From Macrostomum lignano (taxonomy: Eukaryota), in assembly GCA_002269645.1 (NCBI GenBank), contig NIVC01002392.1:114628-178627 (forward strand): 64,000 nucleotides of DNA. The letters run 5' to 3'. Below are positions 41,082 through 64,000 of the stretch, piece by piece. The position numbers and the translations under genes were made by a program. The number at the start of each line of letters is the position of its first letter. The first letter of the stretch is position 1. The notes under the pieces were generated by a model. The model was not told the origin of the DNA. It saw nothing but the letters and a program-made list of their open reading frames with translations, and ran no database searches.

Positions 41082-44000
41082 ATGGCCAAAGCGGCTAAAT
41101 TGCAGACAATGCGGGCTCTTCACGACTCCATCCGGCGTTACGAGACCTCTAACACCTCGCGTCGACGCAGCTCGGTGGCTCTGCGTCCTGAGCCACCGAC
41201 ACCGTCAGCTCTGCGCCGAGCAGCTGCTGAATCTGCATCGGTAGACACGGAGAATGCAACCGGGGGCGCATGCTCCAGATTTTACGTAGGCCTGAGCGCC
41301 TGTCTTGGCCGCGTGACTGCAACGGCAACCACGGCGGAAAACCCCCTGCCAGAGGAGCCAACATTCTGGCAGCAGGCCAAGTTCAGCTGCCGCTGCCCGC
41401 CGCACGGCTACGTGGCTCGCTGGATCACCGGCCTCGTGTCCATCCTGGTACTATACGGCACGCTCATTGTGCTGGTCGGCGAGAACGCGCTACCGCAGAC
41501 CTGCGAGTTGGTTGTCACTGCAGCCACCCCCACAGATACGACCGAAGCAGCAAACGTCAGCTCTTCAGTACCAGAAAATGAGAACTCGAACAGCACGACA
41601 GACTCAATCGTGACAAAGTCCTGCCACGGTGGAAACATCTTCGGACTGTTTGTGCTGTTCGTCTGCTCGATGGTGGCCAGCTCCTGGTCCAAGAAGCTCA
41701 ACTTGCCTCCTCTGCTCGGAATGCTAATTGTTGGCTGTATCCTTGGCAACGCTCCGGAGATTAACGTTGCCAGGCACATTCGAAAGGAGTACTTCAATAA
41801 GCTTCGCGAATTGGCTCTGTGCGTCATCCTGCTACGCGCCGGCCTCAGCCTCGACCCCAACACCCTGCGGCGCCTGTCAGCGGCCGTGTTCCGCCTGTCC
41901 TTCGTGCCCTGCCTGGTCGAGAGTTTCGTGAGCGCGGCCGCCGCTCGCCTGATCCTGGGCTTTCCCTGGGAGTGGGGATTTATGCTGGGTGAGTCTCGGA
42001 AGTTTTGACGAGTTGATAAACTCAAGTTTTCATCAAATCGATTCTAGGGTCTATAAGCAGTACAAAAATACGGTAGCAGTAAGGAGTTATGAAATAGAAA
42101 TTAAAAGCATAGAAGAGTCTAAAAAAAGTGAGCTGCACTCATAACACGACAGGCTTTGTACTGGGCGCGGTGTCTCCGGCTGTAGTGGTTCTTGGCATGC
42201 TGAAACTGGAGTACCGCGGCTACGGCGTTGAGAAAGGCATCCCGACGCTCATCATCGCCGCCTCCTCCATGGACGACGTTCTGGCCATCACCGGCTTCAG
42301 CCTGGCGCTGGGCATCGCGGCCGACGGCAGCGGCAGCAGCGGCAACGGCAGCATCGCCAGGGCAATTTTCCGCGGTCCACGCGACGCTCTGATCGGCATC
42401 GCCTACGGAGCGGCGGTCGGCGCGCTGCTCTGGTACATCCCTCACCGGCAGCACAAGCGGCCCATCATGTTCCGCTTCATTTTTCTGGTCGGAGCCGGCA
42501 TTGTGGCCCTGCTGGGCTGCGAGATGGTTCACCTCAAAGGCGCTGGTGAGAGACTCCACAAAGCTGTTTCGTATCGGAGTGTCTTAAGTGTAGTTGTACT
42601 TTTCTCCCTTTGCTGCATCTTCTCTATTGCTTTTGATGTCTTCCTGTCCTTGACCAGCATGGACAGGCAAAGTTCTCATTCGGAATCATATTCAATCATG
42701 CTTGAGCCTGAGAACTCTGGGAACCGGCTATGATTACGCATAATGTGCCCTCATAACTAGTCAGACATATCTCTCCAGGTTTCCGGCTTCCATCTGGCAC
42801 AGGAATTATCAATAGAATGATGCAGTATAATCGTATGATCGTTTTTGGCAATCAACCTCAATGCCATATACATGTACGATCAGTTTAGTATCGCGTGAAG
42901 ACTCGAGAAGTTGAGTCTTAAAGAGAGGTTATCTTTACTGTTGCTAATCTCATGCAAAATAACCCTGTGTTTAAATTTAAATATCAATATTTAAAAAGTA
43001 TAGCTTCTCAGGTAATGCGGTCATATGAAATTTCGATTGTAAATAGCACGAGGTGCGAGTGCTTGTGGTGCGTGATCACAGCAATCACGCGTGTGAAAAC
43101 AGAGAGTTGCCAGCGTGGCATGACTACTCGGCTTAGTCTACGATGTTGTTATCATTTTTCCTGCTTAGAGACGCCGTCTGTCAGATCTTCTTCTCACCTC
43201 TGCAGCCTGGAATATGTCAAAAAGAATTTCAAAAGCTCCATGGGCATGCAAAATGTCTGCATTTAATCGGGATTGTCTTTTCTAGTCCAAATATTCTGAG
43301 CGATGGATCTCGATTTCGAGCTCTGGAAGTGACGGCGGGAATTCTTCTGAGCAGGGAAGGACTGAGATACTTCCCAAGAAATCGCCTGCCAGTGACAGTC
43401 TCCGGGGCTGAAGGGCCTCCCGTACTCTCCAGGATCCAGGGTGAGTCGCTAGTGAGGAAGTGACTGTTGCGGGCAACGGTCAATTCGACAAAGCTGAAGT
43501 CCTCGAAACTCAATCAGACTGCAGTCGCGGACGACGTTCCATTCATATCAACTAAGCGATGTCCTTCGGCACTGCTAATTGGCAACTAATTAATTCATTT
43601 ATCTCTTTCCCTCTCTCGCACATTTAAGCCGTTCGGTCACATCGCGATGGAGATGCAAAATAAAATCTTTTCGATTCTCCAATTTTATCGTGTATTTTAA
43701 TAAGCCAAGCTTAACAAATTTTTCCTACTTTACGCTCGTACTTCGCCAAGCGATAAGCCGCAAAAGTGCATTGGGTTGAATAAGAAAATCTTCAACTGAA
43801 GCAAAAAAGTCATTTGAGAGTCGAAAGCAAACGAATACATGTAGACATTGGGAACACCGAACCTATCCACGTATGGGTATGGGATGCAAGAATAAAGTGA
43901 TGCGTTGCAAGTGTGTCACTCAGTTTTCCAAGGAGGTTGAGCGCTTGATTAATGTAGCCATGACCGGGTTGGTAACTCGGCAGGGACTTTTCGGGGCTGA

Positions 44001-45760
44001 GCAGATTGCCAAAGCCGGTTTGACAGCCTGGAGACGGGCGCTCCCCAAGTGAGTTGGTGACGGCACGCAACTCTTTTTGTTCCTATCAACATTGGGGGTG
44101 GTAGGAAAGGCTCTCCGTGCCGCCTACTACTGAATTGAGGCTGTTTCTCTCGAAATTGTGTTTCTGTTCGTGAGATTAATTAACCCTGATGTACGTAGCA
44201 TTCCTAATGCTTTGCACCGGGACTAAAGGTAATTCTAGCACTCTCCAAGGTGTAGCATCTCAGAATTTATAGAAAACCTCTAATTAACCCGGATTTTTAT
44301 TAGGCTCAAGACTTTTTAATCTCGGGAATAATCCACGTTGCAGGAGAGTCGTAGCCCCAGTGGTCTACCATGTCGCTCTAATGTGCCCCAGTCTGGATTC
44401 CAACTGCAGTCAGTCACATTAATTTTGGGGCTAAGCTGGAAAATTAACGCCCTTGAGGTCCAACCACCAGGGACACAGTGAAGTGTACATGCCCAACGAT
44501 AAATAAAGTTAGGGCTGCTGTACACTCCTGTGTGAGTGCCTGTGCGTATGACTGCGTACGTATCCGCTCGCTTGTGTGCCTGCTCAGGGAAGTCGTCGGA
44601 ATGGCAGTAATGCCTCTCGCCGGTTGTTTTAATACATTAAATTAGTCATGCAACTTCCGCACTTCAAACTCCAGGAGCCATGGCTGTGCTGACTCTGGCT
44701 TTAGTATCCGGCTACGGCTGGCGTCGCTGGGACGGCTGGTGCGACGAGAAAAACCCGATGCTGGCCCCGCTGGACACTCTGTGGTGGTTCATGCAGCCGC
44801 TGCTGTTTGGCCTCATCGGCGGTCAGATTGACTTCGAGAAGATCCAGCCGGGCCAGCTGGCGCGCGGCCTGGGCGTGGTCGGCATCGGACTGGCGCTGCG
44901 CATGGCCGCCAGCTTCCTGTGTGTGCTGGGCACCAACCTTAGCCTGAGGGAGCGGCTGTTTGTGCCATTTTCCTGGCTGCCCAAAGCTACGGTTCAGGTA
45001 GGCAAAAGGCTCAGTCGATATAGGACTAAAATCAATTACGTATAGCATTTCAAATAGGTATCTGTGCTTATGCTGGATTTCGTGAACGCAATGCGAGTCT
45101 TCACCAGGGTGACTTGCTAACCTTGATACCTACAAATGATTCTAGCTATTTTAAGTATAGGAATGTTCAATAATCGGAACCCAGGCAGTGGTCCTCCTTG
45201 ACAACCCTCTGCTCCAGGCCGCTATCGGTCCCGTGGCTCTTGACATGGCCCTGTCCAAGCAGAATCGCAACGACCAAGAGGTCGACTGGGCCAGCCAGAT
45301 CCTCACCATCGCGGCCCTCGTGATACTGCTCACCGCTCCAATTGGCGCCTTCCTGATCGCCTTCTTGGGCCCGAAGATGCTGCAGCGCGATCGCAACTGG
45401 GAGCAGCACCACTTCGAGCTGTCAGCCAGGCAGCACAGCGGCCAGCACACCCGAGCGAGGACCGCCAAAGCGGCTGCAGCTGCAGTGGCTGCCGTGGCCC
45501 TTGCCACAGCATCCGTAGCCGGCCGGCCGGGCTTCCTGCGCGCCACAGCCAACGATTGTCGACGCGACGCGGACGAAATCGTCGCCCTCGAGGACAACGA
45601 CGCAAATATTGAGACGGAAGTCCGGCCTAAAGCGGTTTCGAACGTCTCGACAGTAGACGAAACTAAAGAGGGCATCAACGGCGACTTTGCCCGACGCTTC
45701 GGCCTCGGTTTAGGCGCCTCTCAGACAGCTGCGGCCCGATCGCGGCGAACCTCTCTGTAG
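41082..45760 (+). CDS. SLC9B2: Na+/H+ antiporter of the SLC9B/NHA family, 721 aa, 4 exons
   Basis: Exons 41082-41988, 42153-42545, 44675-44997, 45218-45760 (2166 nt, phases consistent). Motifs PPLLGML, ILLRAGL, AVSPAVVV, SSMDDVLAI (di-aspartate) and WLPKATVQAAIGP. SLC9B1 versus SLC9B2 cannot be resolved. Confidence 0.93.
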
Positions 45761-54529: not shown

Positions 54530-57019
54530 TTAATCAAAATTCGGCATCAAAACATCTAGCCGATATTCGCTTTCATCCAACTCCAACTCTTGCCCTCGAT
54601 TTCGTCTAAACACGGAGCGAACCCGCGACCGGATCCAGCGGCTCAGACTCTGCGAGGCGAACGCGTGCAGCAGGCGGGTCATGTCGAATCGAAAGTCCAG
54701 GTCAGAGCTGATTCTGGCAACCCGGTCAGACAGCAGGGCGATCATAAAGTTGAATAGAAATATTGAAACAATGATGTAGTACAATATGTAGACAATTGAC
54801 ATGCTTTGGTAACCAGGAAGCGACAGGCTCGGTGAGAACGTGATCTGAAACACGCCGATCAGGGTGGACAGCCAGCTGGAAGTTGAATAGCTTGTGAACG
54901 CTGGCTCACACGGCATCATGAAGATGAACAGCCAACTGTAGATGCAAACAGTCAGAAGAGTGAGCTCTGAGAGTATTAAAAAAGATGGCATCAGGTTGAC
55001 CAGCAGGCAGCAGTGCTTAGATAGTGCGCTGCCCAAGAACGCAATGAACAGCAGGAGGACGAAACAGTAGCAGAATACCATGCTATGAATCATCACGATG
55101 AAAGCTTGGTTCCGTTCCGCGTTGTTTAAATGCACCGAGTCGTTAACTGGTGCAGCTAAAAGTAGGAGTCCGTGCGCACATAGAGCGTCACAAACAGTAG
55201 CTCGACTGGGAATAAAATCATCAGTATTAGCAGCAGCGCATTCCACCATGAGCTGAACAGGGACCGGCAGCGGCTTTGTGAGAACCACTCATGCCCATTT
55301 CTGAAAGGTTCGTAACAGGCAATCTTTGAACCCTTTACCAAAATAACGTTCGAAAATCATTCCATAAAATCAACAAGTCACCCTGCTTACACGAGTCGTT
55401 GTAGGTGGTAGTAACTCAGTAACAGTACCGCAGATAAAAGTATGCCAAAGATGTCGACAAACAGCACAAGCCATCGAAGCAGCTCGCGTAGGAAAAGGCT
55501 TCGATTCGTGCTGACTATCAATTCGATGCCTAAACACTTCTCAAAATGCGTGTCCAAGTTGCTCATGTCTGACTCCTTTAGGTAGACAATGGAATATAGA
55601 CGGATTGTGCCCACTGTTATGAGCAGCAAGAAGATGCAAAGCATAGCCAATATCATGAATCGCCAGCGCCAGTTGAGTTCGCTAAAGATGTCTGCCACCC
55701 AACGGCGAGCTAGAGGACTAGATAAAAAGCTTTTCAAGCTTCCGTCTCAGATGTACTTTTGTATCCTGTGGTGGATGTAGAGTGGCTCCGGTGCCATTTC
55801 AAGCATAGAATGAGCAGAGGGTGCCGGTGAAACCTCGCACCGTTGCTCCAGTGGTAGTCACTCAGGTCCAGGCTCCAAAGGCTGGCGATACCGTGCTGAG
55901 AGATCGCCTTGGAATACCTGAGTTGCCAAAATGTATTAGGTGAGTGCAGCTATTGCAGCATTGGATAGTTGCAGCATTGGTAGTTGCAGCATCGGATATT
56001 GTGCAAATAATCAGTTTTCCTTATAAAAGGCTCTTCATGTGCGTCATACGAGCTATTTTTAGATGTTATCTTACTCTTATTAATTTAAAAGCATGATATT
56101 TACTACCTTGAACTTCTCAAAATGGCCTCGAATAGACTGAACTGGCCCAAGAAGACGGCAAACTCGAGAGCGTTGCTGCCAGTTTGAATGCACTCGACGT
56201 CCAAAGAGCGCGTCAACAGTTCTACGTCGCTCAACTGACGCAGGAAGCTAGCGCACCGGCGTTGCTCCCCATCGGAGTCAATCGAAGTCGCGGCCCGCGC
56301 AATCAGCACGTGAATCAGCGGAGGTTGCGCTGGCACCAGTGGCGTCGGTATGATTGAACTGAAGCGAAGGCACAGCAGCCGGGTGCACTTCATCGACAGG
56401 AACGAAACGGCCACTTCCAACGGATGGCAGTGAGTGGCTGCAAAACGATTCGCAAATTCGAACTTATCGATCTCCCCTTTTCCAGTTTCCCGACTATCGT
56501 CGAGTTCCCAGGGCGGCTGCCAGTCTCCGAGTCGCATAGCAAAGAAGGCAATCAGGGATGCGCGACTGCAACTCGAGAGGAACTCGAAGTAGGCGGCATT
56601 GTCCTCTCGCAGGGCGGCAAACACCGCCTCAGCTGATGGCAGGGCAGCCACGGACGTTGTCAGTTCGTCCATTTCTTGGAGCTCTAATGGGTCTTCGCTA
56701 GTTTGGGTTGAGCTCACAGCGCTTCTACTGCTTTCACTCTTAAAGCTGCTTTGTGCGCTATCGTTTATCAAAGAGGCTGGATGCATCTGCAGACACGAAA
56801 GAGCCTTGGGAACCTCTGCTGGGCTATCTGCTTCATCCGTGTTGGCCAGCGGAGCCACTTGCATCCAGTTGAGGCTATCAGTAGTTGAATTTTTGACTTG
56901 CTCTCGTTGCCCAGACAAACGCTCGGATTCTACATAGGGCCAGTAAGTTGTGCATAAAAATGAAGATAGCTAAATAAAGACAGCTTTTTAAATATTATGC
57001 TGGTTTTACCTCGAGGCAT
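54530..57019 (-). CDS. Divergent TRPV-like cation channel subunit with two apparent frameshifts (possible pseudogene or sequence error)
   Basis: Exons 57019-57010, 56929-56107, 55917-about 55392, about 55300-54530. Ankyrin-like N-part (HPLEVAVSF, NALEFAVFLGQFSLFEAIL), QHGIASLWSLDL linker, multiple TM segments and S6-like YYIIVSIFLFNFMIALLSDRVARI. Frame changes near 55740 and 55160. Confidence 0.65.
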
Positions 57020-58291
57020 GGTGTAGTACCGAATCTGTTACAATAGTTGGCTGCAGCTCAGCTTTGATAATAAAGATTGTTCAGCGCAGTTCCATACAAC
57101 CACGGGGGGCTGATTCTCCCCGCTCTGATTAAAACCACGGTCAAATGTATCCCATCTCGATAATTGGCTTCCACTATTTGTACAGGGAGCAGTGGACAGA
57201 GAGAGAGGCTGGAACAGGCGGGCTGTTTGCTTAGAAAAAGCACGTACCTCTCCATTGCCTGGGTACCTTCACGGATTAAGGTCGGCATTATTGCGTTGAG
57301 TGCTGATTGCCTGGCTCTACCAATATCAGTTCAGTCCATTTTATTAATAATCTTTTCGCAGTGGAAATTCTGGCAGAGGTAATTATTACTGATGTAAAAT
57401 CTCTGCTGGTGCAACTGGATTTATTCATTTATATCGCTATTCACTGTGAGTCTTGCGAGTTATGGATAAATAAATAGAAACTTTAAGCTAAGATTACTCC
57501 TACTTCTATGAAAGTAGTATAGATAGAATAAGTTTTTCTTTTGATATCCACCTGAGTAGCTTTAAAAACGTAGAAAGAATACTACCAAAGAGAAGTTTTC
57601 TTTTCTAGGAAACCATACTGCCGTGTAAGCGATCGGGGATCGAACTTGTCATGAATTTTGCGAATTCTAATTAAAAATCTCAACCTACGCTGCAATCTTG
57701 ATATTAGTATTGATTGAAAAAATGGTGTCCAATTTAAATCTAAAAGAATAACTAAAATATGCACATCTTTGAATCAATAATTGACAAAATTGCTTGTTCC
57801 ACATCAAGCCTCTGATCTCACGGCTGCGACCATGGTAAGATTCCACTTTATTAGGGCTTCCATTTGGGACCATGGCGGCTGAGGATTTTCCAACAGTTTC
57901 TACTTCACAAATTACCAATGCGGCCGAATTACGCGGCCTAAGTGAGTAGTATATACTATACAAAATTGCAAGCAAACCGTTCTCAGAATTCAATCAATTT
58001 AACCCTTTATCAGTGGGAAATGACTCATTTCCCTTCATTACCGCTCGTCTTCACTTCGCTCAACTCGCTCCGCTCATCCTCGCTTCATTTCGGTCAATCT
58101 CCCCATTTCACACTTACAACGATTAATTCTCATTGAATTATGAGAATACGCTCTCGTCGTTCGCTTTGGTTTGCTGGCAATTTTGTATGGTACTCAAACT
58201 CTTCCAACTCTTCCAACACTTCCAACACTTCCAACTCTCTATAACCCCAGGCCGCGCCGCAGGCGCAAAGGGTCTTTTTCTGTTACTAAAA

Positions 58292-58591
58292 ATGAACCGA
58301 GTTTACAACTTTTCAGTAAGCGATACTTTTGAGACTGTTGCTAAGAATGCAGTGATAATAAAACAGCACATATTGAATGGAATAATTGATGAAGTTTATT
58401 TAAAATATGACGATAAGCACGAACTAAAACTTTATCCGTTAGAGTTGGATGGTTTGTATGATTTAGAACAAGAGGGAGAGTTAATATTTCAACTTGGTGA
58501 TTATTTAAATTCCGAGGATTGGGAGGTTAGATCAACAGATTCCGAATCAACAAACAGTTCTTATGAAACTAGTGATTCGGAGAGTCTGTAA
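58292..58591 (+). CDS. Viral small hypothetical protein, 99 aa (paralog family member 1)
   Basis: AAAAATG start inside the listed 58133 ORF. Contains KQHILNGIIDEVYL...KLYPL and an acidic Ser-rich tail. Confidence 0.6.
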   Translation: MNRVYNFSVSDTFETVAKNAVIIKQHILNGIIDEVYLKYDDKHELKLYPLELDGLYDLEQEGELIFQLGDYLNSEDWEVRSTDSESTNSSYETSDSESL

Positions 58592-58607
58592 AAAATATAA
58601 CTAAAAA

Positions 58608-58784
58608 ATGAAGGTAAATCGCATCAACGATACGCATGCTTTGCATGATTATTCCTATATCGGAAACGTGCCAGTTAAGGAACTTAATGAAAATTTAAGT
58701 TTGATAACAGTTGAACAAATTTCAATAATAATATTAGTAACTATAATAGTAATAATATTGTTTTTATTTGTTATAAAAAATTAA
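58608..58784 (+). CDS. Viral 58-aa single-TM microprotein (not in the ORF track)
   Basis: Hand translation MKVNRIND...EQISIIILVTIIVIILFLFVIKN*. AAAAAATG start. Confidence 0.55.
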   Translation: MKVNRINDTHALHDYSYIGNVPVKELNENLSLITVEQISIIILVTIIVIILFLFVIKN

Positions 58785-58833
58785 TTACCTTGCTGCCTCA
58801 AGTAAGCAATTATTTAAAAATTTATTCATAAAA

Positions 58834-59257
58834 ATGGAATTAAAAATTGATCAAAGGCTAAAAGATCTAAAACAGAAGATAAATGATGGTTTAATAAAAA
58901 TTGTACTATTAGAAGGAGTAAAAATATATCCACTAAAACCATCTGAAATTATGCAACTAGAATAGAAACTTAAAAAAAACTTATAAAAGGTTCATTAGCA
59001 ATATTGATGATAATGTTATTGATTTGGTTACATATTTGAATAATTATCAACTACCTACACAAGTAACTCATTATCCAGTGGGATTTTATATTGATACTAA
59101 TCTTGAATATAAAGAGTATTCATTTGCGCCACTAAAAAATATTAACAAACATGGAATAGAGAAGGGTAATTGTGAAAAACTTAATAATTTATCAATTAAG
59201 TTATTTCAAAATAACTTAATTATTTTATCAATAAGATGGCAGAAGTCAAAGAGATGA
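58834..59257 (+). pseudogene. Viral small protein (paralog family member 2), disrupted near 58965
   Basis: MELKIDQRLKDLKQKINDGLIKIVLLEGVKIYPLKPSEIMQLE* (58834-58965), apparently continuing in the 59024-59257 frame. Confidence 0.5.
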
Positions 59258-59544
59258 TAAAAAAGGATTTAATAAAATATGTCAAAATTCGAGGAGTAAA
59301 AATATATACACTAACCACAGATGAAATCAAAGGTCTAGAAATTGAATTCCCAAAACGATATGGAAGTGAAAGGAGGGTTGAAGTAAAAATAAGTGAATAT
59401 CTTAATGACAGGTGTTATAAGGATGGGAAACTAAGTATAGATTTTTGGTATTTAGACCTTGAACAAATTATTAACTCATTTAAATATAAATATAACGAAC
59501 ATCCAACACCATTAAAAACTTTAATAACAGATTATAAAAAATAA
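59236..59544 (+). CDS. Viral small hypothetical protein, 102 aa (paralog family member 3)
   Basis: KEMIKKDLIKYVKIRGVKIYTLTTDEIKGLEIE motif. Confidence 0.65.
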   Translation: MAEVKEMIKKDLIKYVKIRGVKIYTLTTDEIKGLEIEFPKRYGSERRVEVKISEYLNDRCYKDGKLSIDFWYLDLEQIINSFKYKYNEHPTPLKTLITDYKK

Positions 59545-59593
59545 ACATAAATCGCCCCCTCAAGTAATTATTATTTAAAATTTATTCTTAAAA

Positions 59594-59905
59594 ATGGATA
59601 AAAGCAAGCCTGATATAACACACATTCTTATTTTTCTAATTTATATTTTATTTATAGGCTATCCAAGCATTCGTTTATATCAAATAATTGATATCATAAA
59701 ACAACAAAATAATACATTGAATAAGACGAAAAAAGAAACAGAAATGACAATTTCAATAGTAATCATATCAATTGCAACTATAATATTAATAATAATTCCA
59801 TTACTTTTCTATATTATATGCATATGTCCCAATATGTGTTGTAAACGAGAAAAAGAACAACAAGAGCTCCCACAACACGACCCCCTAGATTCACTAAAAG
59901 TCTAA
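59594..59905 (+). CDS. Viral two-TM membrane protein, 103 aa, with a juxtamembrane Cys cluster
   Basis: Two Ile-rich hydrophobic helices and CICPNMCCK. Confidence 0.65.
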   Translation: MDKSKPDITHILIFLIYILFIGYPSIRLYQIIDIIKQQNNTLNKTKKETEMTISIVIISIATIILIIIPLLFYIICICPNMCCKREKEQQELPQHDPLDSLKV

Positions 59906-59931
59906 ATTAAACTAACATTATCTGCCCAAGC

Positions 59932-61536
59932 TTAGCTTGCAGATAATATCTGGTTCTCATAAAACGATCCCAATATTTCTTCACCATCTTTATCGGCAAT
60001 GATATAGGTCGTATGATTTGTATTTAAAACTTTACTGATAGTAAATTTTTCACTTATTTTCCAATATCCTTTTCTTCCTTTTTCAAACTTATCTTTCCAT
60101 TTATAGATATAAACAGAGTCACCAACTTTAAAAGGTTTAGTTTTCTTTTTTTCAAGTGATCCAAAAGTAACTTTAACATTTTAAGGGTTGTTATAAGCTC
60201 GTTGAGGAGTCATCTTTATCGTACGAAGTCCGCGTTCCGAAGGAACGATAGCTGAATGAAATGAATTATTATAATCTTTCACGACGTCTGGTAATATTTT
60301 TACCCACTTTTGGTTACCATTCAGACTAAACTGAAACCACAATTTCTTACCTAAAGTTCGATTAAATCTTTCAATCAGTGCGTTTTTACTTTCTCCATAA
60401 ATAGAATAAATTTTATTAATATACTCACCATTCGCGTCTTTTTTCCTTTCTTTTCCTTTTTCAAAATGATACAATTTATACATATGATGATTGTAAAATT
60501 CTTTTCCTTCATCAACACACAACCTTTCACTTTTTTCTCCAAGACTTCTAAAAGCAGAAGCAACTTCTTCTCCTTTTTTGGATTTCAAAGGAACAGCTCA
60601 CGCATATCGAGTAAAACCATCTAATATGGTTAAAATATATTTATATCCCATATCGGGCGGCATTGCCATTAAATCAGCATACCAAATTTCATTCTTTTTG
60701 AAGTTCATGATTTTTCTATAAAATTTAGGCTTTCGGTATTCTTTGTGAAGAACCTTTGCCTCATCAGAACTTAACCCACCACCACTTAATAATAAACACT
60801 CGACACAATTATTTCCATGTTGGTTGTAATTAATTCCCAAACCAAATTTAACTTTAGATTGCAAGATCTTTTTAACCATCCACCTAGTTAATCTTTGGCT
60901 TACTGATAAGCCCTGTAGATTGTCTAATCCCTCAATCATTTTTCTATCAGCTTCATGCTTTAATCTTAATGCTTCCTCAGGAGAATTATTATCAGCATCT
61001 CTGTATGCTAAGTCATGATAATATGCTAACCAATCAATGCCATTAATGGGAATTGAATCAGCTTTTGGAGTGTCATCTGGATTTAATCTCAAATCCAGTC
61101 CAGTACCGGGTAGTTTGCCCTCAATCTTTCGAAAGAGGCTGGAGCACACCTTAAGCGGATAAATTACCGCCCACCTCCGTCTGCTCTCTGAACCTTCTCC
61201 TTATATTTTTATACTTAGGAGCTTGGCTGCGCATTGCCACCTTGTCTTCAAGCTTGTTACCTTTGGGAAGAGGAGTTACCTCTGTTCCTTCAAAAGATTT
61301 CTCAATTGAAGTGGTACTTGAAGCTGTATGACGGGTTTCACGCAATTTGAAGGTGTCGCCACAAATAGTGACTAGCAAGGACATTGACTTCCTCACTCAG
61401 GCCTCGGTTAACCTGCGTACGAATACCCTGGGATGTGTAATTCATTCGTATATTTTCCAGTAGTAAAAACGCTTGGTAAGCTTGTTAATCCTTTTTGAAC
61501 ATCCAAAAATCCACCTTCAAACACAAGTTGGCTCAT
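59932..61536 (-). pseudogene. PLA2-retroviral-like integrase fusion gene, inactivated
   Basis: ATG 61536: MSQLVFEGGFLDVQKGL...ELHIPGYSYAG | 300-bp insert 61410-61111 | PGTGLDLRL...YYHDLAY...HEADRKM (PLA2); LHKEYRK...WYADL...ILDGFTRYA*AVPLK...VDEGKEF...IERFNRTL (DDE integrase); NNP*NVK...FKVGDSVYI...FYENQILSAS* (SH3-like). In-frame stops at 60600-60598 and 60183-60181. Reconstructed length 434 codons. Confidence 0.9.
61111..61410. other. Exact 300-bp insertion of unknown origin in the PLA2 Ca2+-binding loop
   Basis: Removing it rejoins YSYAG and PGT in frame. Visibly more GC-rich than the flanking viral DNA. No TIR or TSD recognised. Confidence 0.8.
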
Positions 61537-61538
61537 TT

Positions 61539-62024
61539 TTAATGGTTAATTAAAAAACAATTCTCTATCAGTTTAATGATCTCCAAATATTGATCGCCAT
61601 ATAAAAAATTTAAAGCAAACTCCCCTGTTAACAAGGTAACACCATTATCAAATATCTTCTGTACGGGGTTTTTAGTAGTATTATTAATGCAAATATAATA
61701 TAAATCAAATTCAAGATTAACATATTTAAATTCTAATAACTTTTGAATATTTCTAAATCGACTTGATGAATTATCTGTATTATCAGAAGATTTTAACTCT
61801 AACGCAATTTTTCTTTCGGTATGAATTAAATCAATTTTCTTTATTTTTCCAAAACCAAAATGTTCAATAGCTAATAATTCATAAAGAGATCCAAGTCTCA
61901 TTTGAATTGTTTTAATACGGTTTGCAATTATTAATTCATCTTGAAATATTTTATTTAGTATTCTGTCAGAACCAACCTTATCATAAATAGGTTTACAAAG
62001 ACAATCTTTTATCGTATTTTCCAT
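61539..62024 (-). CDS. PD-(D/E)xK nuclease resembling Eco47II-family type II restriction endonucleases, 161 aa
   Basis: RIKTIQMRLG...E...IDLIHTERKIALELKSSDNTDNSSSRFRNIQKLLEFK...YYICIN matches the D...E.K..NT.NSSS pattern recalled for Eco47II-like proteins, especially giant-virus versions. The ORF is uninterrupted. Confidence 0.7.
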   Translation of the reverse strand: MENTIKDCLCKPIYDKVGSDRILNKIFQDELIIANRIKTIQMRLGSLYELLAIEHFGFGKIKKIDLIHTERKIALELKSSDNTDNSSSRFRNIQKLLEFKYVNLEFDLYYICINNTTKNPVQKIFDNGVTLLTGEFALNFLYGDQYLEIIKLIENCFLINH

Positions 62025-62040
62025 TTTAAAAAAATAAAAT

Positions 62041-62718
62041 TTAATTAATTCCAGTATGTCCTGCAGCTTTGGCAGCGGCTAAAACGAGTTTTCGAGGAGT
62101 TTTTAAACCATCACCAACAGCCCTTTTGTTATTTATAGAACCAACAATCCTTTTATACAAACTGGTGTTTTTAGCAGCTCTTACTCCTAACTCATCATAA
62201 AAATTTCTAGCGCTTACTAATTCATCCTCAGTATATAAATCAGGATTAAACTTTACTCTAGGGTTCATAATAATATTATATGCTCCACCCAATCCTCTAT
62301 ATAGTTCATTCCGATTTTTATCAACTCCACCAATTCGATAATTATCATTACCTAAATCTGTCACACCAATACTTTGTGGTGCAGCTCTAGAATATTGTTC
62401 AACTCCACCCCGTTCTGCACTCTTAATCTCTGCAACTCGCAATAGTGCTTGATCAACATCATAAGCAGGCGGCTCATCCTCCACAACATCGTCCTCTTTT
62501 GGTTCCGTATTCTTAGCAATTTTTTCAAGAAGGTCTTTATCTGTTTTTTCTAGTTCACTAATTTTCCCCGTAATAGGATTAACAAAAGGAGCAGCAAATT
62601 TCTCACCAGCCAACTGTATTCCCAACTTTCTTTTTTGCAAATCTCTAACAAAATCAGAATATCTTTGCTTCTCTTTATAAATCGCTAACTCTCCATCAAC
62701 ATCCATAAACTGACTCAT
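62041..62718 (-). CDS. Polinton/adintovirus conserved virion-associated protein (GasderminX/PZ-like), 225 aa, C-terminus possibly shortened
   Basis: Ends GDGL...KLVLAAAKAAGHTGIN, resembling the G.GL...RL.LL.A...AGNTG..NE motif of Polinton proteins. Confidence 0.55.
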   Translation of the reverse strand: MSQFMDVDGELAIYKEKQRYSDFVRDLQKRKLGIQLAGEKFAAPFVNPITGKISELEKTDKDLLEKIAKNTEPKEDDVVEDEPPAYDVDQALLRVAEIKSAERGGVEQYSRAAPQSIGVTDLGNDNYRIGGVDKNRNELYRGLGGAYNIIMNPRVKFNPDLYTEDELVSARNFYDELGVRAAKNTSLYKRIVGSINNKRAVGDGLKTPRKLVLAAAKAAGHTGIN

Positions 62719-62752
62719 TTTTTAATATAAAAAACTTTTTTAACTTAAAAAA

Positions 62753-64000
62753 ATGGCTGAAACAAAAACCATATGGAGTGATAAATTTCATTTCAAAAAG
62801 CACCGTCAGTATATTAATGAGGTCAGGAAAAGAGATTTAAATTTTACTCAACCAACAAGTGATAATTCAAACAATTTTACTACGGGAACAGTAACATTTG
62901 ACATCGGCGCAACCAGCAGCATATTGGATATGAAAAATGCGTTTTTCCGCGTTAGATGGTTGTATACCAGAAACGATGGAACTGCCCTGGTAGCTGGTGA
63001 TATAGCTGACCGATCTGGTATTATTATAGAAAATGATTGGTTTTATAAATGTTTTTTCCCAAGCCCAACTAACAGTTAATGGAGCCGAGGTTGAGACAGC
63101 ATCAAACCCAGCAGAGATTAATGGAGTTTTGAAACATTTAAATTATACTTATTTATAAAAACAAGTTGGTGATAGTGTTGGATGGATGCCGGATAAGGTA
63201 ATGGTCAAGCAGTAGTTTTCCCCAACGTACAAAACGCAGCAGGCGCAGATACCGCAGCTCTTATTGCTTATCTTAATACCAATATAGTTCCAGTTGTAAC
63301 TACCATGACTAACACAAAAGATATGAACACCGGTTTTATAGATCGTCAGAATAAATTCCCAGTCGAGGTTTTAACCACGGCAACCGCATATGAGCAGGAC
63401 TTTTCAATCTTCCCACTATTTGGGTTCTTCTCACCAAATCGTGTATGGAAAGGATTAAAATTTGGTATACAGTTGCAAATATCTGGTGGATATCAACCTA
63501 GGAGGATACTTTATGGAACTTCGATTTCAACCGATATAGCTGCTCGCATAGCTTCAATTCAATTAGTCGTACCAACTATTGAGGTAACGGCTCCGCTTTT
63601 ACCAGGTAAAACACATCGATGATCAGTTAGAGCTTGATCAAGAAATATTTTATTTGAATCGTCGACACTTTATGCGAACCATTAATAACAACCAGGAAAA
63701 TGTCAGTGGCAAATACTGACATCAAAACGTCGGGTGAGGTATATTTTTGTTTGGTTTAAGATAACAAACAGAAGGAGCAAAAGAGCAAACGGGGATTTAT
63801 ATTGGCTTCAATCAGGTGACGTAGCAGCAACAAGCAGCCACCGCAACCGACAACGCGGTTTCAGCGATTAACGAGTTTAATGTCCAGAATATCCGCCTGC
63901 AGGTTGATGATCAATATTATCCGGTTAAAGACCCCCTTAATCTAAATCTTGGAAATAATAATGTTAATGATTTTATAAAATATTATCAGGATTATGTCAA
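62753..64000 (+). pseudogene. Polinton/adintovirus major capsid protein (double jelly roll, hexon-like), several frameshifts and stops, truncated by the window end
   Basis: Pieces across frames: TFDIGATSSILDMKNAFF; FSQAQLTVNGAEVE..NPAEINGVLKHLNY; NTGFIDRQ; PLFGFF; WQILTSKRRVRYIFVWF; FNVQNIRLQVDDQYYP..LNLNLGNN...YYQDY. Confidence 0.8.

Follow-up and report, generated by a model that had tools for sequence, protein, structure and literature searches.

The window, by which we mean the whole 64,000-nucleotide stretch of Macrostomum lignano DNA that was analysed, ends in a portion of a Polinton-like element whose features are collected in Table 1. One of them is an AT-rich open reading frame with no internal stops (24% GC). 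The stop of the ORF upstream of it is 16 bp away and the ATG of the gene that follows is 2 bp away, both distances as given in a preliminary description made from the letters alone, and the catalytic residues D65, E76 and K78 and the NTDNSSS motif reported there are found in the translation. The upstream ORF, there labelled "GasderminX-like", has no Pfam match, so that label goes unconfirmed. This copy of the element is decayed: its integrase contains stops, and the frame of its capsid-like gene is broken; the double jelly-roll match is confined to the corresponding gene of a second family, B, introduced below. Near the edge of the element there are a 9-nt tandem repeat (58194-58238) and a 25-nt inverted repeat (57954-58192). 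On the host side lie two stretches which we take to be exons resembling a Na+/H+ antiporter (41082-45760, plus strand) and an ion channel (54530-56864, minus strand).

Table 1. Features of the element portion of the window
Feature	Position	Strand	Remarks
Polinton-like element, end portion, family A	~58000..64000		AT-rich, no GGNCC; the contig ends at the window end
PLA2-integrase exon 2	59932..61110	minus	begins PGT; remainder of PLA2 plus rve integrase
Group I intron without ORF, 300 nt	61111..61410	minus	lies at GGN|CC (Gly|Pro); terminal A; placed from RF00028 and intron-less alleles
PLA2-integrase exon 1	61411..61536	minus	ends in HIPGYSYAG; terminal U paired with G in P1
Eco47II/EcoO109I-like PD-(D/E)xK endonuclease	61539..62024	minus	161 aa, free-standing; from ORF, Pfam, model and alignment
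Upstream ORF, 225 aa	62041..62718	minus	borders, on the upstream side, the slot in which the nuclease is exchangeable
Probable major capsid gene	62753..64000	plus	inferred by position; short broken frames in the window copy

Copies of the window's family, A, carry rve, DNA_pol_B_2 and Pox_A32 matches in Pfam; with an integrase, a protein-primed PolB and a packaging ATPase thus present in other copies, the Polinton label proposed from this stretch holds. The genome gives 86 Wnt matches, some of them on contigs that also hold element copies. The host is an animal, and contamination is ruled out by the many element integrations in animal contigs. Two nuclease-bearing Polinton families, A and B, are present in this genome; they differ in gene order and in replication genes. 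An Endonuclease_7 domain lies above the Pfam cut-off within polymerase ORFs of both (L083:1971-5945, L170:8157-9947 and L169:2-1915).

The nuclease had been described as Eco47II-type, and that assignment survives in part. Its match to the Pfam family RE_Eco47II (PF09553) has an E-value of 0.0013 and a score of 18.8 bits, below the curated cut-off of 25.9; its close relatives P0012 (31.8) and P0013 (34) pass the same score test, and 32 of the 38 relatives scanned match the family, many above the cut-off. An AlphaFold2 model (pLDDT 95.6), built from an 87-row alignment of the nuclease and its relatives in which D65, E76 and K78 are near-invariant, matches PD-(D/E)xK nucleases, which is the structural comparison that had been proposed. 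The best whole-length match is EcoO109I (Foldseek TM 0.59-0.62; Z 9.2, rmsd 3.9, 159 residues aligned, the next row at 6.3), and AvaII is also among the structural matches; both of these enzymes recognise sites with a GGNCC core. The predicted fold is therefore PD-(D/E)xK, with EcoO109I nearest. The lowest Foldseek E-value belongs to the nuclease domain of DdmD, at a TM of 0.42, and viral structure matches are all weak. A homodimer prediction scored high, as did its control, equally so. Sequence searches against solved structures gave no useful match, and among NCBIfam and PADLOC profiles the window nuclease matched none, while PADLOC REase_II was matched by distant relatives. PF11645, the I-Ssp6803I family, is not matched in Pfam and is absent among the fold matches listed.

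Searched against 1.84 billion representatives, the nuclease has 162 relatives at E<=0.001. Two distant ones, P0020 and P0072, occur as fusions with a C5 cytosine methyltransferase domain, which points to a restriction-modification origin. A plasmid search with the relative P0019 gave no matches; a scan of IMG/VR gave 48 pattern matches with none confirmed, and the JGI metagenomes contributed a single locus (L090) out of 302 candidates. In its own genome the nuclease has 103 matches, with 26 near-full-length copies at 91-100% identity and 22 at 57-66%. An identical nuclease is encoded at four places (G000 C56, C929, C2392 and C4057), and the window copy and that on C56 look like duplicates of one insertion, since the same broken neighbours are common to both. 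From 23 nuclease sequences read, 12 were distinct; dN/dS is 0.21 over 36 pairs of nine distinct family-A sequences and 0.25 over the three pairs of three family-B sequences, and D65, E76 and K78 are intact in all 12. The ORF is a genuine, intact gene on which purifying selection acts.

A PLA2-integrase gene does follow the nuclease, as the preliminary description said, but it is broken 125 nt past its ATG by a group I intron that had been overlooked. Rfam finds RF00028 at 61120-61420 with 63.3 bits (cut-off 50), and across 14 loci gives 11 such matches. The exact limits, 61410 to 61111, were set by the intron-less alleles L046, L055 and L068. The window intron has a P1 with the U-G pair and a P3-P9 core, and its P7 differs from that of family B through paired changes. 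It sits between the Gly and Pro codons of a PLA2 loop motif, YAG|PGT. Uninterrupted alleles read through in a single frame, with Phospholip_A2_4 and rve both above cut-offs; exon 2 of the window copy has two in-frame stops. Among 30 unselected exon-2 loci the intron is absent from three. A second, different group I-like intron is found at the same Gly codon in L006-L009, L062, L065, L069, L142, L143 and L148; its 3' junction gives no obvious in-frame Gly-Pro, and in L065 a GC-richer, foreign-looking piece interrupts the intron.

Group I introns normally end in G. The window intron and most family-A copies end in A (position 61111 here) with the P7 pairing kept, while the introns of family B, of L090 and of some family-A copies have the terminal G; the ends of the first intron type in family A are 44 A and 10 G, with 10 rows out of register, duplicates included, or about four-fifths A. 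That most family-A introns end in A puts their splicing in question. No RNA run was listed among the sequencing runs that hold the sequence. Contigs from runs guessed to be RNA span nuclease and intron, and their exon joints match intron-less alleles. In run X4 (guessed RNA) the joint falls exactly at the 5' splice site of family B, followed by an exon-2 variant that is absent from the assembly and from the loci, and this may reflect either splicing or an unassembled allele. No clean spliced joint was seen in the public contigs of guessed RNA status; a looser junction pattern gave mostly chance matches, and the three checked were unrelated.

One could take the nuclease for a relic, a passenger or a splicing helper, without a present nuclease role. 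The window element, with its integrase stops and broken capsid-like gene, fits such a picture, as do the many nuclease copies that are fragments, and, speculatively, introns ending in A might need a protein helper. Against this stand the dN/dS of 0.21-0.25, the unbroken catalytic triad in every distinct sequence and the continued absence of GGNCC described below, which together make the idea very unlikely.

The position of the nuclease relative to the intron differs between families. In family A it is free-standing, upstream of the intron-bearing PLA2-integrase gene. In family B, at all four loci read, a nuclease 58-66% identical to it is housed by the intron itself, occupying a stem-loop ahead of P3 and extending into the core; and in L090, on an unrelated JGI metagenome contig, a nuclease is found inside an intron at the same PLA2 codon. 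The same state can be recognised in the databases, where eight relatives of the nuclease continue into intron-core sequence: the low-information tail that follows the nuclease in them is what the core of a group I intron gives when translated. In the nuclease tree family A falls beside family B, and these are joined by three more intron-tailed relatives, with support of 96/85 when the tails are included and of 83/84 and 80/74 when they are trimmed. Exit of the nuclease from the intron in family A is therefore favoured over entry, with moderate tree support. A one-clade test that mixed in rows of unknown context is disregarded here. The intron next to the gene, and the intron-encoded state of the nuclease in family B, were both missed by the preliminary description, and it is these that explain the gene.

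The same description regarded the nuclease as an integral part of the viral gene block, which cannot be maintained: most intron-bearing family-A copies hold an unrelated HNH-like ORF in its slot. This ORF, of about 190 aa and CxxC/HNH-like, has 130 matches (examples are L044, L046, L050, L060, L062 and L068) but no Pfam match; its Atlas neighbours are viral hypothetical proteins, the nearest named HNH protein being at 0.89. In none of 106 locus rows do it and the Eco47II-like nuclease occur together. All 24 distinct nuclease-bearing places of family A examined carry an intron, 19 the first type and five the second, and the three intron-less family-A places have the HNH-like ORF in the slot; since there are only three of the latter, the mutual exclusion of nuclease and intron-less allele within family A is not significant by itself. 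The 24 intron-less places outside family A have no nuclease within 1.5 kb.

Gly-Pro is always coded GGN CCN and so always contains GGNCC, and it is this word that the intron splits, as GGN|CC. Intron-less alleles read GCAGGT|CCC, GCAGGC|CCG or ACTGGC|CCA at the insertion site. GGNCC is present there in 27 of 27 intron-less alleles found by pattern (the pattern itself required GGNCC) and in all three unselected ones, and the flanks vary widely, with GGNCC alone constant. If an enzyme cuts so short a word and there is no methylation, its carrier should be without the word. The examination of palindrome avoidance that had been suggested for the element did single out one word, GGNCC. Among the 256 words of the form ABnCD it is the most depleted in nine of nine family A and B sets and in five of five further family-B sets; the copies being related, this amounts to replication in two families rather than to fourteen trials. 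Three nuclease-bearing family-A copies have no GGNCC at all, with 14-15 expected under an order-2 model and 7-9 under order 3, the probability of zero per copy being about 4e-7 to 7e-7 under order 2. In the long ORFs of these elements Gly-Pro is absent. GGACC, GGTCC, GGCCC and GGGCC are all at zero and their 4-mers are common, 26-43 each; because of the former, the avoided word can be neither GGWCC nor RGGNCCY. Base composition was likewise rejected as the cause: CCNGG is present, and the AT-rich control C234 is undepleted (30 GGNCC, 20 expected).

Over the element-homologous parts of 24 of the 25 covered stretches, GGNCC occurs only at three intron-less insertion sites, at four extra sites (three in one intron-less copy and one in another) and in foreign-looking inserted DNA. 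Such a GC-richer piece accounts for the GGNCC within two copies (L023:7800-8530 and L085:8900-9670). In each of two family-B elements without the intron, GGNCC occurs exactly once in 12-14 kb, at the PLA2 Gly-Pro. Nuclease-free copies of both families are depleted too.

Control families were drawn from PF03175, because a search of this genome with the Pox_A32 family gave no matches and a protein search with the ATPase found family A only. Other Polinton families in this genome have 8-41 GGNCC per 10 kb; the six GC-richer pPolB controls have 10-41, with the word ranked from 3 to 160, and in the AT-rich control L173 it ranks first, at 8 with 15 expected (P 0.04 under order 2, 0.37 under order 3). 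In 17 stretches of host-like DNA there are about 1.8 GGNCC per kb, an observed/expected ratio of 0.67 under order 2 and 0.90 under order 3; in the host part of the window (1-57000) the word is at rank 1 under order 2 and stands at 93 vs 87 under order 3. Repeats may be a cause of this mild scarcity in host-like DNA. A background scarcity of GGNCC thus exists, and zero is reached only by families A and B.

From this avoidance, and from the fold neighbours, the nuclease likely cuts GGNCC, a predicted site that is intact in the intron-less alleles and that the intron destroys. In the available part of one paper an Eco47II homologue is described as a cutter of the same word, "without certainty" (PMC10305163).

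Homing endonucleases usually have recognition sites of about 14-40 bp, and the nuclease might be a conventional enzyme of that kind with a restriction fold, the avoidance of GGNCC coming from some outside pressure such as the restriction system of a co-infecting virus or methylation-driven decay. Homing enzymes with a PD-(D/E)xK fold and long sites do exist (I-Ssp6803I, 17 bp; PMC3424549, consulted in excerpt), relatives fused to C5 methyltransferases occur elsewhere (P0020, P0072), and the depletion extends to the nuclease-free copies. These last, however, share the history of the nuclease bearers, being close relatives with the slot swapped; the nearest folds are those of short-site restriction enzymes, the other Polinton families of the same host retain the word, and no base of the flanks is held constant around it. 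A long site is on this evidence very unlikely, and the avoidance together with the variable flanks points to one of 5 bp.

No methyltransferase was visible to the preliminary description, and extending the scan to 32 and 18 element ORFs, some small ORFs left out, likewise found no such domain; PF00145 has 12 matches in the genome, none of them at the listed element places. With no methyltransferase found in the scanned ORFs, the classical restriction-modification or addiction module, one of the roles that had been suggested, was rejected. Two others from the same list, a homing-like selfish gene and exclusion of competitors, gain support: the intron next door interrupts the predicted target, and in family B the gene is intron-encoded.

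We therefore propose, with a probability of roughly 0.7, that this restriction-derived nuclease with a predicted GGNCC site is the homing and exclusion enzyme of the intron in the adjacent PLA2-integrase gene. Observed are the modelled fold with its catalytic residues, the insertion of an intron at GGN|CC, a nuclease located within that intron in family B and L090, and the loss of GGNCC from the rest of the elements; cleavage, splicing and homing would follow from them. The carrier's protection from its own enzyme is best read as a purging of sites, with the last one masked by the intron: the PLA2 Gly-Pro site cannot be recoded, GGN CCN always spelling GGNCC, so the intron would mask it in the DNA and then splice out of the RNA. 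Expression of the nuclease would be confined to the element's replication as a virus, a limit suggested by the host's roughly 1.8 sites per kb. An intron-less relative in the same cell would be cut once, at the insertion site, and its repair from an intron-bearing copy would spread the intron; many cuts would fall in unrelated elements, in viruses co-infecting the cell and in the DNA of the host. In family A, the nuclease would have left the P2.1 loop of the intron to act from its neighbouring position, in the manner of collaborative homing. In this way a 5-bp cutter would gain single-site specificity, because the target genome has purged all its other sites.

The emphasis can also be reversed: the GGNCC cutter may have been selected as a viral weapon, breaking down host DNA in lytic growth or restricting larger viruses and unrelated Polintons, with the intron as its shield and homing incidental. 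The many sites in host-like DNA and in other Polinton families would suit such a weapon, the purging of whole elements goes beyond what homing needs, and intron-less family-B alleles persist (the 24 places outside family A). There is, moreover, a phage in which interference by intron nucleases has been shown (PMC11620839) and a giant virus for which it has been proposed (PMC5871332), to go by the portions of those papers available. Yet a nuclease internal to the intron, as seen in family B, L090 and the eight database relatives, is the arrangement of a mobile intron, and most family-A copies do without the nuclease. The two roles are compatible with each other, and we consider it unlikely that the weapon came first and homing was incidental.

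Going further than the homing and exclusion role itself, and with somewhat less assurance, we regard the system as probably a methylation-free restriction system of animal viruses, at once a gene drive at one site and a weapon against competitors, in which the nuclease alternately enters and leaves the intron and competes with the HNH-like gene for its slot. If this is so, a restriction enzyme can become a homing endonuclease without acquiring a longer site, the specificity being supplied by the target genome, and site purging with intron masking is an alternative to methylation. Endogenous viruses would then also bring mobile group I introns into animal nuclear DNA, and the sequences would be evidence of encounters and competition among animal Polintons as replicating viruses.

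No report of a nuclease, intron and purged site in this arrangement was found in the literature searched, most subscription papers lying outside the search. Among animal Polintons, the adintoviruses and their kin (PMC8502044, PMC10748475) share the integrase, pPolB, packaging ATPase and PLA2 domain, and have nuclease domains inserted in pPolB, as far as the accessible text of those papers goes. In the main text of PMC8502044 the words "restriction" and "endonuclease" occur 0 times and there is no group I intron, though its supplementary maps could annotate such a gene; in the part of PMC10748475 at hand a group I intron comes up solely as the place an HNH domain may have come from. That part, and that of bioRxiv 10.64898/2026.10.13.758929, touch only in general terms on nucleases, and on restriction-modification as a possibility, in these viruses. 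Polinton-like viruses of protists have HNH/GIY-YIG nucleases and RF00028 introns of about 300 nt, so that similar introns do occur in small eukaryotic DNA viruses; those reported are from three protist groups, with protist hosts only and no nuclease assigned, and a restriction-type enzyme or site purging is unmentioned in the available portion of the paper (PMC12220804). For Bodo saltans virus the masking of a nuclease target by an intron has been proposed as a device of competition, much as here, but its intron nucleases are HNH and GIY-YIG, and neither a restriction-type enzyme nor site purging is mentioned in the sections available (PMC5871332).

On the enzyme side, Eco47II (PF09553), EcoO109I (PDB 1wtd/1wte) and AvaII share with the nuclease the PD-(D/E)xK fold, D...ExK and a predicted GGNCC-type site. 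It differs from such type IIP enzymes in its length of about 160 aa, its score below the Pfam cut-off, its tie to an intron and the methyltransferase not found with it; Eco47II itself is listed as bacterial in the part of PMC3424549 available. I-Ssp6803I (PF11645) and I-Bth0305I are likewise encoded by group I introns and have a fold of restriction type, but their targets are long (17 bp for I-Ssp6803I, according to the same excerpt), and PF11645 is not matched here. The closest parallel in arrangement is collaborative (trans) homing with intron invasion, described for phages (PMC3984707, available in part), where likewise a free-standing endonuclease and a group I intron without an ORF have a common target. 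Here, by contrast, a restriction-derived enzyme with a predicted site of 5 bp is found in an animal host, its carrier is purged of every other such site, and an exit from the intron, not an entry into it, is what the tree favours. The arrangement is best read as a variant of intron-associated homing, derived from a short-site restriction enzyme and located in an animal Polinton, that apparently dispenses with methylation.
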